Shown here in pieces: positions 56,464 to 63,580 of a DNA stretch of 64,000 nucleotides. The stretch's first letter is position 1, and the number at the start of each line of letters is the position of its first letter. The translations under genes were made by a program, and so were the position numbers. The notes beneath the pieces are model-generated. The model saw only the letters and a program-made list of their open reading frames with translations. It was not told the DNA's origin and did no database searches. The DNA comes from an uncultured Saprospiraceae bacterium (lineage in GTDB: Bacteria > Bacteroidota > Bacteroidia > Chitinophagales > Saprospiraceae): positions 2,111 through 66,110 of the forward strand of contig CALIEI010000053.1 in NCBI GenBank assembly GCA_938022165.1, written 5' to 3'.

Positions 56464-56564
56464 TTAATTATAAATGATAAATTATAAATGCTTCTCTGGT
56501 TTCTACTTACTAGCGAATTAGCTTATGACTTGGAGCCCATCTAAAACGTTTATAATTTATAACC
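56464..56564. repeat. AT-word module pair in inverted orientation flanking ~50 bp (short member of the stop-codon-abutting repeat family)
   Basis: TTAATTATAAATGATAAATTATAAATGCTTCTCTGG starts immediately after the TAG stop. The inverted partner CGTTTATAATTTATAA is at 56547-56564. It shares GCTTCTCTG and CGAATTRGCTTA with 62845-62875. Confidence 0.7.
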
Positions 56565-56823: not shown

Positions 56824-57573
56824 ATGGAATTAACAAGAAAAATAATTTTCACAACTCTAGCTTTTTTATTTATCTGCCATACTTCAATAATAGCACAACA
56901 TAAGAAAGGAGTTTTAATTTATGAGGCTCAAAATATAAGGGGTTACACATGGGAAGATAAGATTGCAGAAAGTAATTTGGACTCCATACAATCTTCTAAT
57001 GCTAGAAAGCGAATAGAAGAATTTCTTGGAAAGAGAAAAAAAGAAGAAGAGTTAAAGAAAAAAAAGCCTTTTATATGGGAATACCACTTCAATAAAGCAA
57101 AAGCACGCGTAATTGGCAATAAAGTTTATCAAGGAAAAACTTTTGGCATATACGACTACAAGGAAAACACTAGAATCGTAAGGCGATATCATAAAGGAAA
57201 CCCAAATGACTTTCGAATTGACTCTGTCGATTATAACTTTATTAATGGAGAGAAAGAATTTGAAGTTGAAATTTTCAGAGACAGCACCAAGATTATAAGA
57301 GGCTTTGATTGTTATAAAATTGAAATCGTTGAAAAATGGGGATACGACAAAAGACCTTCATTATTTTATGAAATTTATGTCACTGATAGCATTCATTTTC
57401 CTGTTAATGCTTTGATGCATATCCCTGTCTTCGTATCTAATTCTTGTCCAGTAAGTATAAAACATTGGGGGCTACGAAAAGAGAACTACTTCAGTGCAGA
57501 ACTAATTAGTTTCAATAAAAACCTAAGAAAAAAAATGCTAAAGGTGCCAAAAGAGTTTAAAGGCAAGCAGTAA
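56824..57573 (+). CDS. secreted hypothetical protein (249 aa)
   Basis: Signal-like N-terminus (IFTTLAFLFICHTSIIAQ). AT-rich, Lys-rich composition. No recognisable domain. Confidence 0.55.
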   Translation: MELTRKIIFTTLAFLFICHTSIIAQHKKGVLIYEAQNIRGYTWEDKIAESNLDSIQSSNARKRIEEFLGKRKKEEELKKKKPFIWEYHFNKAKARVIGNKVYQGKTFGIYDYKENTRIVRRYHKGNPNDFRIDSVDYNFINGEKEFEVEIFRDSTKIIRGFDCYKIEIVEKWGYDKRPSLFYEIYVTDSIHFPVNALMHIPVFVSNSCPVSIKHWGLRKENYFSAELISFNKNLRKKMLKVPKEFKGKQ

Positions 57574-57599: not shown

Positions 57600-57960
57600 A
57601 ATCTTACCTATCGTATTTTTATTTTTCTAAGGTATCCCACCTCTGCGAGTTGGACAAGCTTGAACAAGAGAGAATTGCTAAGGTGCCTAAGGTGGTTTCC
57701 CGAATAAGATTTGCGATACCCATTCGTTCAGAACCCCTTGAAAATCCTAAAAGCTCTTCAGCGTATACAATATACCTAATTTTTTCTAAAGTGTCTTGTA
57801 CATGATAGAATTGCTCTTCAGTGCCCCACCTCTACGAGTTGGGCAAGCTACGGTGGTTAACCGAATCAGATTTGCTGCATTCATGCATTCGGAATCACCT
57901 GAGCTTATCCAACTAATAGAGTTGAAAATCTAGACTTGTCTTGCGCATACAAGCCACCTA
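57600..57960. repeat. two tandem units of the mosaic repeat family in inverted orientation relative to 61597-63235
   Basis: 57825-57862, CTCTTCAGTGCCCCACCTCTACGAGTTGGGCAAGCTACGGTGGTTAAC, is the near reverse complement of 63181-63222. 57636-57660 is likewise the near reverse complement of 61784-61810. Confidence 0.75.
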
Positions 57961-58078
57961 AGTTTTTCACCTAGAGATCCAGCATCTCAGAGTTTTTTAT
58001 TAAATTGTAACATAAATTCATCCAAAACAACCATCTAAACGCAAATAGACACGTTATAATTAAAGTAACATATTCAAT

Positions 58079-58598: not shown

Positions 58599-60179
58599 AT
58601 GAAATACTTATTACCCACACTAATTATCATTTTACTCTCTATTGACGTAAATGCTCAGCGTACTTTTGCCAATGACATTGCGCCGATTATTTATGAGAAA
58701 TGTGCTACCTGCCATCGAGATGGTGAGATAGGCCCAATGGCTTTGACCAATTATGAAGAAGTACAATCTTGGGGACCTACCATAGAGTTTGTTACGAGTA
58801 GCAAGATCATGCCGCCATGGCAACCAGATCCTAGCTACTCTACTTTCTTGGGGGAGAATTTTTTAACGGATGAGGAAATAGCAACTATATCAGAATGGGT
58901 AAATGATGATATGCCAAGAGGAGATGCCAATGCAGAGCCAGCATTTCCTGATTTTCCAGAAGGATCCGTTTTGGGTACGCCCGACTTGGTTTTAGAAATG
59001 GAAGAAGACTGGGTGCACGAAGGCAACTTCCAAGATGACTATAGATATTTTGTATTTCCTACAAACTTCCCGGATGACAAAGTGATCAAGGCGGTGGAGT
59101 TTAGACCTGGTAATTCTAAAATTGTTCACCATGCACTCCTCTTTGAGGATGTCACTGGTGCAGCAAGAGAAAAGGATGACGCTACTCCAGAATATGGATT
59201 TGATGGTTTTGGTAGTTTCCTAGATGGCAACTCCACAAGCATATTGACGCAGAAGCAATTCCCTGGGTTTGTTCCTGGTCAAAAGCCGATTCGGTATCCT
59301 GATGGATTGGGACAAATCTTGCAAGCTGGAGCTGATGTAGTCGTACAGATTCATTATGCACCTTGGCCCATAACAGAAACGGATCGTTCGAAGATGAATA
59401 TCTTTTTTATGGATGAGACGGAGGAAGAATTGGAACGCCAAGTTCAAGGTCATATTATGGTTCCTCTACAAGAGGTTATTGGAGAACAGTTTTTCATTCT
59501 TGCCAATACTAAAAAAGAATTTCACGGAAGATACACTGTACCAATAGATGTCAGTCTGGTAAATATTGCTCCTCATATGCATCTACTCGGTAAGCACTGG
59601 GAAGTATGGGTAGAGACGCCTGATGGTGATCGCATCAACTTAATCAACGTACCAGAATGGGATTTCAACTGGCAAGGATCTTATAGTTTTGATCGCTTCA
59701 AAGTGGTGCCTGCAGGTAGTGTTGTACATGCCGTAGCGAGTTATGACAATACCACAGATAATCCTAACAATCCAAGCAATCCACCTCAATTCGTCACTTG
59801 GGGTGAAGGTACTCAGGATGAGATGTACTACCTACCACTTGGCTTCGTAACTTATAAAGAAGGAGATGAAGACATCGTTTTTTCTGAAACCACAGTAAGT
59901 GCTAAAGACTTATTGGTCACCAATAATCTTATCTACCCTATTCAACCTAATCCAGTAAGTGCTCATACCGTAACTGGTTTTTATTTAGAACAAGGACAAA
60001 GTGTCAATATCAGTATTTATGATATTCAAGGTAAGAAAGTGAGAACCTTGAGAGAGAATGAATTCTTCAATATGGGTGATCACTTTATTGATTTTTCTAC
60101 TCGTGCTCTTTCAGGTGGAATTTATGTTTTGCAGATTCAAGGGAAGGATTTTATTATGACGGAGAAATTTGTTAAGTAA
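58599..60179 (+). CDS. secreted fusion: c-type haem-binding motif + PHM/DBH-like copper monooxygenase fold + T9SS C-terminal domain
   Basis: CATCH (CxxCH) with a distal IMPPW. Candidate Cu ligands IVHHALLF, QIHYAP, APHMHLLG and QDEMYY, spaced about 75 aa apart as in PHM. CTD IYPIQPNP..GIYVLQIQGKDFIMTEKFVK. Confidence 0.7.
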   Translation: MKYLLPTLIIILLSIDVNAQRTFANDIAPIIYEKCATCHRDGEIGPMALTNYEEVQSWGPTIEFVTSSKIMPPWQPDPSYSTFLGENFLTDEEIATISEWVNDDMPRGDANAEPAFPDFPEGSVLGTPDLVLEMEEDWVHEGNFQDDYRYFVFPTNFPDDKVIKAVEFRPGNSKIVHHALLFEDVTGAAREKDDATPEYGFDGFGSFLDGNSTSILTQKQFPGFVPGQKPIRYPDGLGQILQAGADVVVQIHYAPWPITETDRSKMNIFFMDETEEELERQVQGHIMVPLQEVIGEQFFILANTKKEFHGRYTVPIDVSLVNIAPHMHLLGKHWEVWVETPDGDRINLINVPEWDFNWQGSYSFDRFKVVPAGSVVHAVASYDNTTDNPNNPSNPPQFVTWGEGTQDEMYYLPLGFVTYKEGDEDIVFSETTVSAKDLLVTNNLIYPIQPNPVSAHTVTGFYLEQGQSVNISIYDIQGKKVRTLRENEFFNMGDHFIDFSTRALSGGIYVLQIQGKDFIMTEKFVK

Positions 60180-60194
60180 TTATAAATTATAAAT

Positions 60195-61587
60195 CACTAC
60201 TGTCCGGTTAAAACTGAAAGAGACTAAAAACGTTCCTTTATCGCCTATAAACACTATATGTGTGTCTTATTTTTTAAAAGTAAGCCCCTAGGCTAGAATA
60301 AAGTTGGTCCTTTGTTATTAATTGATTGATAGTTCAGCAACGATTTATATGGATTATTGAAGAACTTATACAAGTCTACATAAGTCATTAGATGAATTCG
60401 AATCATCGAACTAATGTTGGCAAAAGACCATTTAGTTCTAAGTTTTGACTGCACAATTTTGATTAACAAATCTGCGATTAAGGCACACCAAATCTGTATT
60501 TGTATTGCATTCTCATTATCTCCTAAAAAGTACTTTAGTGGATAATTTTGTTTAAGTCTTTTAAACAGTAACTCTATTTGCCATCTCTGTTTGTAGATTT
60601 GACTGATAGTATAGGCTGCCAATTTATTAGAGTTAGTAATGAAAGTAAATACCTTATCTTTTTCTTTATCATAATACTCAATCAGCCTAGCATTTATTCG
60701 GGTTACATCTTTATGAGATGTGTGGCCTAAAATTACTTGTTGATCTAGTCTAACCCCCTTATTGTATTGAGCTTTCGTAATTGGACTTTCGCTTATTACT
60801 TCACAAACAGCCCCTTTCCTTAGTCGAGTTACCCAAGTAACCTTGGCTTCATCCCACAGCTTATACTGAGCATAATCCACATAGGCCTTATCAAAGACTA
60901 CTATCGCTCCCTTTGGAAGCTGTAAGCCTTGTATAAAGGGGGTGTCGTGCTTTGCAGCAGCAGTTAGCTTGACAAAGCATGGTACATCTTCATCTGCTTT
61001 TATCATTGCATGTGCCTTAATACCACCTTTTCTTTTTCCATCTACAGGGTTTCTTCCAGCGTTCTTTAATATCTCTTTAAATAACTGAATAGTCGTTGAA
61101 TCAATTATATACAGTCTAGAGTGAATACTTTTTCTTGTTCGGCTGTCCGGTAAACTAGAACCAAATTGCTTGTATATTTCATAGTAAATAGCCTCAAATA
61201 CTTTTGAGGATCGATTCGCATTGCCTTCTGAAAGAGTACTTCTCCTTGGAAAATATTTGAGACCCAAGTGCCTTAGCTTTCCACTGCAACCTAGCATTCC
61301 AGTAGTAACTTCACGCAAAGAATTGCATTTGTGGAATATACCATAAAGCATCGTTACTAAATGGTCGTAAGTCTTAAACTTCTTATAGTAACGATCTGTG
61401 CCTAGCTTGCGAGCTATCCTATTGACTAATGAACGATCTACGAATTTAAGTAGCTGAGAAAATATTGGCTGTCCGGTAAAATTTGCATCTTGTGTCATCT
61501 TTATTTTTTTGTGTCGTAACAACAAAATATCGATAACTGAGAGAAGTTTTAGGACTTCTCTCTATTTTTTTCCCCGGACAACAATGA
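60195..61587 (-). mobile_element. IS4-like insertion sequence (1393 bp) with a 9-bp target-site duplication ATTATAAAT
   Basis: Imperfect terminal inverted repeats CACTACTGTCCGG and CATTGTTGTCCGG (reverse complement of the right end). Direct repeats at 60186-60194 and 61588-61596. Joining the flanks exactly reconstitutes the uninterrupted sequence seen at 62816-62850. Confidence 0.9.
60293..61498 (-). CDS. IS4-family DDE transposase (DUF4372-type N-terminus)
   Basis: The N-terminus FTGQPIFSQLLKFVDRSLVNRIARKLGTDRYYKKFKTYDHLVTMLYG is typical of DUF4372-containing IS4 transposases. DDE-region motifs IIDSTTI, VVFDKAYVDY and YKQRWQIELLFKRLK. ATG at 61498. Confidence 0.9.
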   Translation of the reverse strand: MTQDANFTGQPIFSQLLKFVDRSLVNRIARKLGTDRYYKKFKTYDHLVTMLYGIFHKCNSLREVTTGMLGCSGKLRHLGLKYFPRRSTLSEGNANRSSKVFEAIYYEIYKQFGSSLPDSRTRKSIHSRLYIIDSTTIQLFKEILKNAGRNPVDGKRKGGIKAHAMIKADEDVPCFVKLTAAAKHDTPFIQGLQLPKGAIVVFDKAYVDYAQYKLWDEAKVTWVTRLRKGAVCEVISESPITKAQYNKGVRLDQQVILGHTSHKDVTRINARLIEYYDKEKDKVFTFITNSNKLAAYTISQIYKQRWQIELLFKRLKQNYPLKYFLGDNENAIQIQIWCALIADLLIKIVQSKLRTKWSFANISSMIRIHLMTYVDLYKFFNNPYKSLLNYQSINNKGPTLF

Positions 61588-61596
61588 TTATAAATG

Positions 61597-62005
61597 GTGA
61601 ATTATAAACGCCTTTCTGACTCGAATTGCTTAGGACATAAGTTTTCTTTGTTATTCTTCAGTGCCTCGAGCACGCTAAAGAAGCCCTGCGCTGACTACGG
61701 TGATTAACGAACAAACAAGAGCTGCTTTAAAGTATTCATTTAACACCGTAGACACTACAGTTACTCTAACGTGTTCAAACACCAGAGCTTGTCCAACTCA
61801 TAGAGGTGGAACACCAAAGCTGCTATAACGTGTTCTTAAATATTCTACAGTGCCTTGAACAAGCTAAAGAAGCCTTCGGTGACTACAGTGGTTAACGAAC
61901 AAACAAGAGCTGCTTTATCGTGTTCATTTTAACACTGGTAGACACCGAAGCTCTTCTAACGTGTTCTTTAATTTTCTTCAAGGCCTCGAACAAGCCTAAA
62001 GTAGC
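61597..62005. repeat. mosaic hairpin-repeat array, copy A
   Basis: Collinear with copy B (62834-63235). It is built of sub-motifs TTCTTCAGTGCCTCGRACAAGCTAAAGAAGCC, CGGTGACTACRGTGGTTAACGAACAAA, ATTTTAACACCGTAGACAC, GAAGCTGCTCTAACGTGTTC and AGCTTGYCCAACTCATAGAGGTGG. Confidence 0.85.
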
Positions 62006-62176: not shown

Positions 62177-62740
62177 ATGAAAATTTCCACTCGTTTAACC
62201 TTCATCTCTCTATGTATTTCTTATTCGCTTTTCTTTTTTCAACCAAAATTGATCTTGGCTCAAACTAAAACAGAGAAGAATAAGTACAACTTGCCTAAAC
62301 ATATCAAAAACAGTAATAATGTTCTACTAGTGCAGTTAAAGGGAAGAAAGAATTATGACAGGTATATTATTAAACATATGAAAAATGAGTATTCCGGAAA
62401 GTATGAATTTTTAGAAGTAGAAAGTATAAGTAAATATTATGGAGATTACCCAAGCATCCAAAGAGACGGATTCACCATTTATTATTTTCGTGATAATCCT
62501 AAGTTTGAAGGTAAATATGAAGATGTTGAGAAATACAGATACTTTTTAGGGCAATATTATATTGCAACCAATGGAGCCTGGAGATTTCCAGGTAAGAAAA
62601 GTGAAGTGTATACACGTTTTAAGAGCCATTTTTACATTCTTGATAGAAAGACAGGTGAAAAATATGATTACACTCAACCAGGTAATTCGTTTGCTAAGTT
62701 CTTTAAAAAATATATTACTGCAATAGATGAAGGAGTGTGA
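62177..62740 (+). CDS. secreted hypothetical protein (187 aa)
   Basis: Signal MKISTRLTFISLCISYSLFFFQPKLILAQ. Lys/Tyr-rich, AT-rich. No recognisable domain. Confidence 0.55.
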   Translation: MKISTRLTFISLCISYSLFFFQPKLILAQTKTEKNKYNLPKHIKNSNNVLLVQLKGRKNYDRYIIKHMKNEYSGKYEFLEVESISKYYGDYPSIQRDGFTIYYFRDNPKFEGKYEDVEKYRYFLGQYYIATNGAWRFPGKKSEVYTRFKSHFYILDRKTGEKYDYTQPGNSFAKFFKKYITAIDEGV

Positions 62741-62768: not shown

Positions 62769-62818
62769 TGCATGTGAGCAGAAAGGAATTCGTCTTGACG
62801 GAGAAATTTGTTAAGTAA
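62769..62818 (+). pseudogene. orphan 3' stub of a T9SS-cargo gene (last ~12 codons, RKEFVLTEKFVK-stop)
   Basis: 62796-62833 is identical to 60157-60194, which is the end of gene 58599..60179 plus the AT-word module. Upstream codons remain similar at protein level (GKDFIMTEKFVK versus RKEFVLTEKFVK). Confidence 0.7.
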
Positions 62819-63235
62819 TTATAAATTATAAATGGTGAATTATAAACGCTTCTCTGACTCGAATTGCTTAGGGCATAAGTTTTCTTTGTTATTCTTCAGT
62901 CCCTCGAACAAGCTAATGAAGCTTTCGGTGACTACGGTGGTTAACGAACAAATAAGAGCTACTTTTAAGTATTCATTTTAACACCGTAGTCACCGAAGCT
63001 GCTCTGTCATGTTCAAACACCGTAGGCACTGAAGCTGCTCTAACGTGTTCTTAAATATTCTTCAGTGCCTCGGACAAGCTAAAGAAGCCCTGCGGTGCCT
63101 ACAGTGGTAAACGAACACATAAGAGCTGTTTTAAAGTATTCATTTTACCACCGTAGACACTACTCTAACGTGTTCAAACACCGTAGCTTGCAACTCATAG
63201 AGGTGGGGCACTGAAGCTACTCTAACGTGTTCAAA
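62819..63235. repeat. AT-word module + mosaic hairpin-repeat array, copy B (uninterrupted)
   Basis: TAATTATAAATTATAAATGGTGAATTATAAACGC followed by the array. It contains a 14-bp perfect inverted repeat, CGGTGACTACGGTG (62926-62939) / CACCGTAGTCACCG (62982-62995), and GGCACTGAAG / CTTCAGTGCC arms. Confidence 0.85.
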
Positions 63236-63425
63236 AAAGGTATCAGTTCTAACTTCAATAAAGCGCGACGGGCGGGACGCCCCAAAGCTCGGCAAGCCGT
63301 ATGGCGCGTAGAGCTTAGAGATAGAAATGGTATCGGGCTTTTTTCAAGCCCGATAGGAATGGATAGCTCGACTCCTTCCCTTTTTCAGGGAATGGAGGAA
63401 GCCCCAAAAAATGACCATCATATCT
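63236..63425. repeat. GC-rich intergenic island
   Basis: GCGCGACGGGCGGGACGCCCCAAAGCTCGGCAAGCC. Hairpins ATCGGGC-TTTTTTCAA-GCCCGAT and TTCCCT-TTTTC-AGGGAA. The GCCCCAAAAAA word is shared with 22975 and 34735. The track ORF 63227..63427 is rejected. Confidence 0.5.
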
Positions 63426-63548
63426 AAAAAATTATATATAATTGATAATCAATATTTTACGAGATATACGCCGGCATGACCAGATTATTGGCACAGTACT
63501 TGCAATCTAGTAAGTAAGTTTTGGTTAAAAAATTGTAAGATTCGTTTG

Positions 63549-63580
63549 AGCCCGCATTGTAAAAAATGTGGGCTTTTTTT
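63549..63580. terminator. hairpin + T7 (plus-strand sense) abutting the stop of the minus-strand gene
   Basis: AGCCCGCAT-TGTAAAAA-ATGTGGGCT followed by TTTTTTT. It is canonical only on the plus strand, where no upstream CDS exists. Confidence 0.45.

Follow-up and report, generated by a model that had tools for sequence, protein, structure and literature searches.

Arrays A and B are two neighbouring arrays of hairpin-forming repeats in a stretch of 64,000 nucleotides from an uncultured Saprospiraceae bacterium (hereafter the window). We consider it probable, at roughly 0.6, that they are paralogous two-unit arrays of a genus-specific, dispersed, non-coding palindromic repeat, which is similar to ERIC, YPAL and other inverted-repeat transposable elements of miniature size (MITEs) and is arranged in the manner of bacterial interspersed mosaic elements (BIMEs). 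The element is not a repetitive extragenic palindrome (REP) or a BIME, because it departs from the definitions of that class (PMC3733652) in the size of its unit, in the size of its loop and in having no fixed GTAG tag, though the BIME analogy is apt for the layout. The units also appear to be mobile, as judged from near-identical copies dispersed over the genome and from filled and empty orthologous sites.

Arrays A and B and the dispersed repeat family

The two arrays have the same plan, in which an AT-rich head is followed by a 40-nt linker and by two units of about 170-190 nt. The features of the arrays are as follows.

61587..62005, + strand: array A, with the rest of the head (61587-61609), the linker, two palindromic units (~61647-61835 and ~61836-62005) and the C-box module (61786-61809)
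62825..63240, + strand: array B, with the head, the linker, two palindromic units (~62885-63050 and ~63051-63240) and the C-box module (63185-63206)
62924..62997, unstranded: long hairpin of unit B1, with 21-nt arms that are 90% complementary and a 32-nt loop
63025..63069, unstranded: junction hairpin of units B1 and B2, GGCACTGAAG / CTTCAGTGCC, with a 25-nt loop that holds the CTGCTCTAACGTGTTC box

In a gapped global alignment, A and B were collinear and 86.5% identical across 385 aligned nt. The earlier note on this DNA had described two collinear copies of about 410 bp, and this description held. The repeats it had reported are real, but the array starts it gave (61597 and 62834) were too late; the true starts, 61587 and 62825, follow a piece of a gene 3' end that the two copies share. 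The four local units were 80-88% identical in pairwise comparison. A swapped order of the units in A and B, suggested by an ungapped repeat comparison, was dropped in view of the collinear gapped alignment and of this similarity among all four units. The biggest difference between the arrays is the presence or absence of the module AGCTTGyCCAACTCATAGAGGTGG (the C-box), which stands mid-array in A and near the end of B, as had been noticed before.

The two inverted repeats cited for array B were found to be exact: CGGTGACTACGGTG (62926-62939) pairs with CACCGTAGTCACCG (62982-62995) across a spacer of 42 nt, and GGCACTGAAG (63025-63034) pairs with CTTCAGTGCC (63060-63069) across a spacer of 25 nt. 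A repeat search lengthens the first pair to the long hairpin of unit B1. Copy B gave a folding z of -4.8 against 100 dinucleotide shuffles, none of which folded as well, and its longest perfect inverted repeat was 16 nt, compared with a maximum of 11 nt in 200 shuffles. Copy A gave a poorer result, with z = -2.1 and, at 8 nt, a longest perfect inverted repeat not above chance. These facts suggest that the hairpins of A are degenerate. The list of open reading frames (ORFs) contains none longer than 51 aa inside either array, in agreement with the claim that the arrays are non-coding.

The genome from which the window comes is a metagenome-assembled genome (MAG) of 258 contigs and 87.7% completeness; below, C-numbers denote its contigs, C53 is the contig of the window and G000 is the genome itself. 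An iterated nhmmer profile search of these contigs was seeded with the four local units. The first-round profile gave significant matches (E < 1e-3) on 17 other contigs. The converged search gave 45 islands of 76-592 bp each, 9.4 kb in total, on 33 contigs, where the contig-end pairs C24/C63 and C142/C39 may be one locus each. The motifs are thus not confined to this locus and constitute a dispersed family.

The family consensus is an imperfect palindrome of 136-160 nt, and both strands score about equally. Unit length is 130-190 nt overall, and the unit ends are AGCTGATTCGGGAAAACACC... The arm, of about 65 nt, consists of short words in a set order (CTTAGGTGTC, TTGTACA, a GCTnCTCTAAC-type box, CTTAGGTaTCTAAGGTGG and TTAACCGAA) and is followed by its own reverse complement. 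In arrays, an arm is followed by centre 1, a reverse arm, centre 2, a further arm and so forth; the orientation alternates around two kinds of centre, and the nhmmer matches overlap on both strands. The mosaic of hairpin-forming sub-motifs proposed earlier is borne out by this arrangement. The C-box is an optional mini-hairpin module of 20-23 nt, an asymmetric insert that breaks the symmetry of the palindrome. Where a unit stands alone (on C189, C16, C44, C50, C13, C40 and C243), it folds into one hairpin, the length of which can reach about 160 nt; C189:20603-20734 is an example.

It is conceivable that the arrays grew where they stand, from words of seven to nine nucleotides behind stop codons, by slippage, inverted template switching and gene conversion, with similar products at many sites. 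The arms are indeed chains of 7-9-nt words (CTTAGGTAT/CTAAGGTGG; AATTATA/AATGGTG), and the vocabulary is private to each locus. Three neighbouring arrays have the word variants CTTCAGTGCC and TTCGGTGACTACGGTGG in common, in which the same A-to-C or T-to-G change relative to the consensus occurs in both tandem words and in both arms, suggesting concerted homogenisation. Heptamer arrays of such a general kind are known at gene borders in Bacteroidetes and cyanobacteria (PMC4679880). Units at unlinked loci, however, are 86-90% identical over 127-160 nt, including the non-repetitive linkers and the C-box. All units, moreover, keep one fixed order of at least eight modules, which independent local growth is unlikely to yield. 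We regard growth in place as a rather unlikely explanation.

If the units are instead ERIC/YPAL-type miniature elements, they would come and go at orthologous intergenic sites and settle mainly behind the 3' ends of genes. The arrays would grow by mis-aligned recombination or by slippage between arms, and the hairpin potential would be kept through paired changes in both arms. Hairpins from the arrays in 3' untranslated regions (UTRs) could modulate mRNA decay. No REP-associated tyrosine transposase (RAYT) or insertion sequence (IS) was found as a partner that would spread the units.

Another multi-copy element is headed by a variant of the C-box hairpin that is richer in GC, GCCTGCCCAACTCrTAGAGGTGGGGCG, after which come CCCAGGGCT..AGCCCTGGG and a stretch, ATCCCATTTGGCGCGATTTTTCATTTTCAAAAATCGTGACAAATGG, that is conserved (G000 C130:11539, C204:10429, C224:1662, C177:4926, C154:30915, C191:26322 and 26601, C54:42743). 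In one copy of this element, the opposite strand matched Acido-Lenti-1 below the threshold (31.8 bits; gathering score 37). The genome is in general very repeat-rich, with 13,077 different 12-mers that occur at least eight times; among them are GGAGTGGACTCA with 96 occurrences, the tandem word CCTAGACACCTAGAC with about 80 and AAAATATCGCCAAAAGAGTCATTTT with about 65. Such abundant repeats point to several further intergenic repeat families.

Genomic distribution, hairpins and transposases

The genes around the islands were called by our own long-ORF approximation (2929 ORFs, 85% coding), so that the following counts are approximate. All of the 45 islands are intergenic. For the 28 islands with both neighbours called, the neighbouring genes were convergent in 10 cases, tandem in 14 and divergent in 4. 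Compared with the baseline of intergenic bases, islands were enriched between convergent genes (36% vs 19%) and depleted between divergent genes (14% vs 26%); the tandem baseline was 55%. The islands are biased towards gene 3' ends. About one third of them lie within 1 kb of a contig end, and no gene family was found to recur beside the islands.

Among the relatives, matches to the consensus were found in five of the seven other species of the genus (14, 14, 10, 4 and 1 hits), and none was found in the 79 other Saprospiraceae genera that were sampled. The C-box pattern occurs 18 times here; of 40 relatives, only one, a sister species, has it, with five occurrences. In the sister species G007, a unit of 135 nt is located between two convergent genes, and the same two genes abut in the present genome (C53:21245-21250). 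In about 20 Saprospiraceae, on the other hand, the orthologues of the gene upstream of array A (58599-60179) are followed by a plain terminator or by the next gene, and the head and the array are absent. Since filled and empty orthologous sites are found in both directions, the units appear, on this comparison of sequences, to be gained and lost within the genus.

Conservation of the hairpins was analyzed in 11 units, three of which are local paralogues, with a structure derived from the same sequences by a vote of single-sequence folds. In the palindrome register 82.7% of the cells were paired, compared with 28-38% in slid registers. Nine of the 31 pairs change on both sides, and the covariation score was 0.182 as against 0.131 in shuffled alignments, a value equalled by one of 500 shuffles. 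For the 11 units as aligned with MAFFT, RNAalifold gave no useful consensus. The hairpin potential is maintained, and nothing singles out RNA over DNA.

No terminator-like site was detected inside array A or B, and the first one on the + strand is at 63548-63575. Because the upstream genes are not separated from the arrays by a terminator, the arrays are probably transcribed as long 3'-UTR hairpins. It is also possible to interpret the units as functional structured RNA, that is, as cis-acting 3'-UTR elements or small RNA genes, spread by selection and not by selfish mobility. The double changes that preserve the hairpin register, the position of the arrays downstream of stop codons and the strong association of the AT-rich head with same-strand stops would all fit such a role, and the hairpins of ERIC are a precedent for a repeat that affects mRNA stability (PMC2229807). 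The arrays nevertheless gave no match to the Rfam 15 covariance models, either in the window (E <= 1) or in ten other family arrays (<= 0.1), and the claim of the earlier note is not overturned by a known RNA family. Units are found in both orientations relative to their neighbours (the C-box is co-oriented in 8 cases and anti-oriented in 13, without bias), their words vary from locus to locus, and orthologous sites in sister species lack them. The transcribed strand, moreover, has no folding advantage (15 vs 9 for sense and antisense, p = 0.2). It is therefore unlikely that a function as RNA explains the family.

The only Rfam matches from the window and 13 other loci were the Acido-Lenti-1 match mentioned above and a sub-threshold match to Flavo-1. 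The latter (63308-63377, + strand; 36.4 bits, gathering score 42) is an RNA-like element in a GC-rich island that follows array B at a distance of 70 nt. Flavo-1 has 16 matches in the genome, three of them above the gathering score; further matches are at C197:1081-1173, C47:2175-2260 and C61:5063-5145, and at least one other follows a family array.

The hairpins could also be true REPs in BIMEs, spread by a RAYT encoded elsewhere in the genome, and the earlier note had suggested a search for such a transposase. Three Y1_Tnp (PF01797) ORFs of the RAYT type, 152-172 aa long, are in fact present. The arrays alternate in orientation as BIMEs do, and some words hold GTAG, for example CACC-GTAG directly before the stem GCACTGAAG...CTTCAGTGC at 63021-63068. 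The three genes, however, are flanked by other repeat families. The RAYT of 157 aa at C252:4330-4801 is a textbook case, both flanks of which carry tandem arrays of its own 20-nt GTAG-tagged REP, GTAGCACCnnnGGTGC (TTTGTAGCACCnnnGGTGCGG; about 18 copies in the genome). The Y1 ORFs at C40:743-1199 and on C102 are closely related and are embedded in another hairpin repeat (GCTGTCGTCC..CAGGAC; GCTGTCGTCCytCCAGGACT and partners; about 14 copies). Neither of these repeats shares any word with the present family, and no family island adjoins the three Y1 genes.

The unit itself also differs from a REP, which is an imperfect palindrome of 20-40 nt with a stem of 6-13 bp and a loop of mostly 2-5 nt, and which in over 90% of cases carries a conserved GTAG (or CGTC) tag at its end (PMC3733652). 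Here the consensus is 136-160 nt, and the local hairpins have arms of 10-21 nt and loops of 25-42 nt, far beyond these norms. GTAG is merely one state of a variable word (CTAAG, CTTAG, CTGAAG, CTGCAG, CCGTAG), the consensus of which is TAAG (CCTAAG/CTTAGG). Of the properties of BIMEs, the alternating units, the two kinds of centre with recurrent linkers, the extragenic position and the 3'-end bias are shared, but membership of the REP/BIME class does not, and we consider it very unlikely that the family is spread by a RAYT. An assignment of the C-box to an IS200/IS605 transposon end was likewise rejected, because the genome has no TnpB-type gene and the three Y1 genes carry other repeats.

Several observations weigh against an ERIC/YPAL-like mobile element as well. 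Repeats and insertion sequences are under-assembled in the MAG. A target-site duplication could not be defined, nor could sharp ends of the element; the species of the genus are too diverged (63-80% aa identity) for their intergenic DNA to be aligned. Single units showed no consistent ends or duplication, and the sister species are too diverged for their flanks to be aligned. No transposase recurs next to the islands; the only adjacent ones, of the IS4 type in the window and of the IS110 type on C80, interrupt the repeats and do not carry them, and their ends are not shared with the units. The covariation was found in a small sample that includes paralogues. In an arm-swap test, own arms had no general advantage over arms of other units (-12.8 vs -15.8 kcal/mol), so that the pairing is in large part a property of words that the units have in common. 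The absence of a sense-antisense asymmetry in folding leaves a role at the RNA level without support.

The IS110-family transposase (C80:23894-24949; DEDD_Tnp_IS110 and Transposase_20; one assembled copy) interrupts a unit in its middle, with CTTAGGTA on one side and TCTAAGGTGG on the other. Together with the IS4-type element inside the head of array A, it shows that the repeats, like REPs, act as landing sites for insertion sequences.

A more far-reaching interpretation seems doubtful to us. The family could represent a distinct repeat class, in which long palindromes of interchangeable 7-9-nt words are seeded at a phylum-wide AT-heptad stop-codon motif and spread or homogenise without a RAYT or IS, for example by hairpin-templated copying. 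Such a class might truly influence how the 3' ends of mRNAs are processed in a phylum that has neither Hfq nor ProQ.

Local history of the arrays

The features around the two arrays are as follows.

58599..60179, + strand: upstream gene of 526 aa with a C-terminal sorting domain of the type IX secretion system (T9SS; Pfam Por_Secre_tail, E = 2e-07), the stop codon of which opens the head before array A
60177..60194, + strand: first half of the head of copy A, TAATTATAAATTATAAAT, severed by the insertion sequence
60195..61586, - strand: IS4-family insertion sequence of 1392 bp, with a transposase ORF at 60293-61525, terminal inverted repeats CAyTryTGTCCGG and a 9-bp target duplication, ATTATAAAT
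62177..62740, + strand: AT-rich orphan ORF between the arrays, 187 aa, with a signal-peptide-like N-terminus and a GC content of about 30%
62797..62818, + strand: orphan stub that repeats the final 22 nt of gene 58599..60179, stop codon included, with fainter similarity upstream to about 62770
62816..62847, + strand: uninterrupted head of copy B, TAATTATAAATTATAAATGGTGAATTATAAAC, with a TRF period of 7 at 62817-62846
57627..57968, - strand: third local array, two units of the same family in opposite orientation (C53:59737-60078), which carries private words of A and B, for example CTTCAGTGCC, and the C-box

The upstream gene ends with ...GACGGAGAAATTTGTTAAG-TAA, directly followed by TTATAAATTATAAAT. 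The stub and the head before array B form an exact 37-nt copy of this gene end with its head (60158-60194 = 62797 onward), which was found nowhere else in the genome. Because this exact copy of gene end and head precedes B and because the arrays align collinearly, we conclude that A and B are paralogues from a local segmental duplication of about 0.45 kb that included the last codons of the gene. The gene-end stub, the post-head linker (61609-61646; 62848-62884) and the exact local words are restricted to these loci. A simple local duplication, which the earlier note had named as the finding that would overturn its claim, thus accounts for the pair A/B itself, but the idea that there is only such a duplication and no wider family is refuted for practical purposes by the 45 islands on 33 contigs and by the five sister species with the family.

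The insertion sequence matches the Pfam families DDE_Tnp_1 (2.7e-26) and DUF4372 (1.3e-23) and is present in one assembled copy, of which the ends and the 9-bp duplication could be read directly. When 60194 was joined to 61596, which takes out the insertion sequence together with one of the two 9-bp repeats, the result was an uninterrupted head exactly like that before B.

The history of the locus can be read from these sequences. At first, an array stood immediately behind the T9SS cargo gene 58599-60179, following its stop codon and AT-heptad head. About 0.45 kb of DNA, with the last 22-40 nt of the gene, the head and the array, was then duplicated, and the second copy lies downstream of the AT-rich orphan ORF. 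The copies drifted to their present 86.5% identity, with gain or loss of the C-box module. The IS4-family element entered the head of copy A afterwards, making the 9-bp duplication. JGI metagenome contigs were scanned for the locus junction and for the C-box, with no match in either scan.

Two AT-rich ORFs adjoin arrays of the family in the window, namely 62177-62740 (187 aa) and 56824-57573 (249 aa). Both have signal-peptide-like starts and no Pfam family, and they are unrelated to each other. The 187-aa ORF found no homologue except itself among 5.8 billion protein clusters. A model in which the arrays bracket a mobile gene cassette was therefore rejected: the two ORFs are unrelated, the 187-aa ORF is an orphan and no gene family recurs beside the islands.

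The head, ATTATAAATGGTGAATTATAAAT, is built of the 7-nt words AATTATA and AATGGTG. Read from the TAA of TAATTATAAATGGTGAATTATAA, the three frames stop at TAA, TGA and TAA; the tandem-word structure of heptamer repeats is thus present, in the head only. The genome contains 48 copies of the head at up to three mismatches, 21 of which are positioned between -21 and +16 nt relative to the stop of an ORF on the same strand. The head is usually followed by a TATAAAyGCAGCTCTnnCGTGTTC box, which is similar to a box within the units. It anchors arrays A and B, and most islands are without it. Among GTDB species representatives, the exact 23-mer of the head was found on 56 contigs, most of them from Bacteroidota, with several orders represented, and a literature search for the head sequence retrieved no paper.

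Sites of the head in the window are 62816-62847, 60177-60194 with 61587-61609, and 56464-56490; examples elsewhere in the genome are C56:18769, C76:3295 and C109:7397. At one orthologous gene end, compared between C56 of G000 and another Saprospiraceae MAG (L010), the head is identical at 23 of 23 positions, and the coding flank and the box that follows have diverged.

Comparison with known repeat systems

On the interpretation preferred here, Saprospiraceae, which are poorly studied and mostly uncultured Bacteroidota, have lineage-specific long palindromic intergenic repeats of their own, with a layout that parallels ERIC/YPAL and BIMEs and has no link to a RAYT. The family is a new example of familiar bacterial repeat DNA, selfish or structural DNA of an expected kind, and not a new system. 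In practical terms, such repeats break MAG assemblies, draw IS insertions and can mislead annotation, through spurious ORFs or "cassette" boundaries. If the arrays are indeed transcribed, they would be a possible source of 3'-UTR structure that influences the expression of secreted-protein genes.

The AT-heptad head resembles the intergenic heptamer repeats of Bacteroidetes, cyanobacteria and Beggiatoaceae (PMC4679880) in its tandem 7-nt words on or after stop codons and in its stops in all frames. It differs from them in that its words are others, that it is a short fixed block of two to four words, as opposed to a long array, and that it stands after genes and not before start codons.

The family has in common with the REP/BIME elements of E. 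coli and further Proteobacteria and with REPIN/RAYT systems (PMC3733652, PMC3116915) its extragenic and 3'-end-biased position, its hairpins, its clusters that alternate with two linkers and its use as a landing site for insertion sequences. In contrast to these systems, its arm is about 65 nt, as against the 20-40 nt of a REP, its loops are long and it has no fixed GTAG or CGTC tag. It is also absent from the flanks of the RAYT-type genes of the genome, and its copy number of 45 islands is modest.

The closest parallels are ERIC/IRU (127 bp) and YPAL/RU-2 (168 bp), from enterobacteria and Yersinia (PMC2229807), which are likewise non-coding units of 100-200 bp whose halves pair into one long imperfect stem-loop. 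Like them, the family is intergenic, is present in tens of copies, has both filled and empty orthologous sites and is plausibly co-transcribed with flanking genes; like YPAL in particular, it is not AT-rich and is associated with regions of dyad symmetry. It differs from ERIC and YPAL in that it has no sequence relation to them, belongs to a different phylum and has no demonstrable TA termini or target duplication. Its units, furthermore, are often concatenated and share arms, the arms consist of 7-9-nt words that vary by locus, and an optional asymmetric C-box may be present. With its stem-loop unit of about 100-200 bp and its filled and empty orthologous sites, the family has two of the properties by which MITE-like elements such as ERIC, YPAL, Correia and RUP are recognised.

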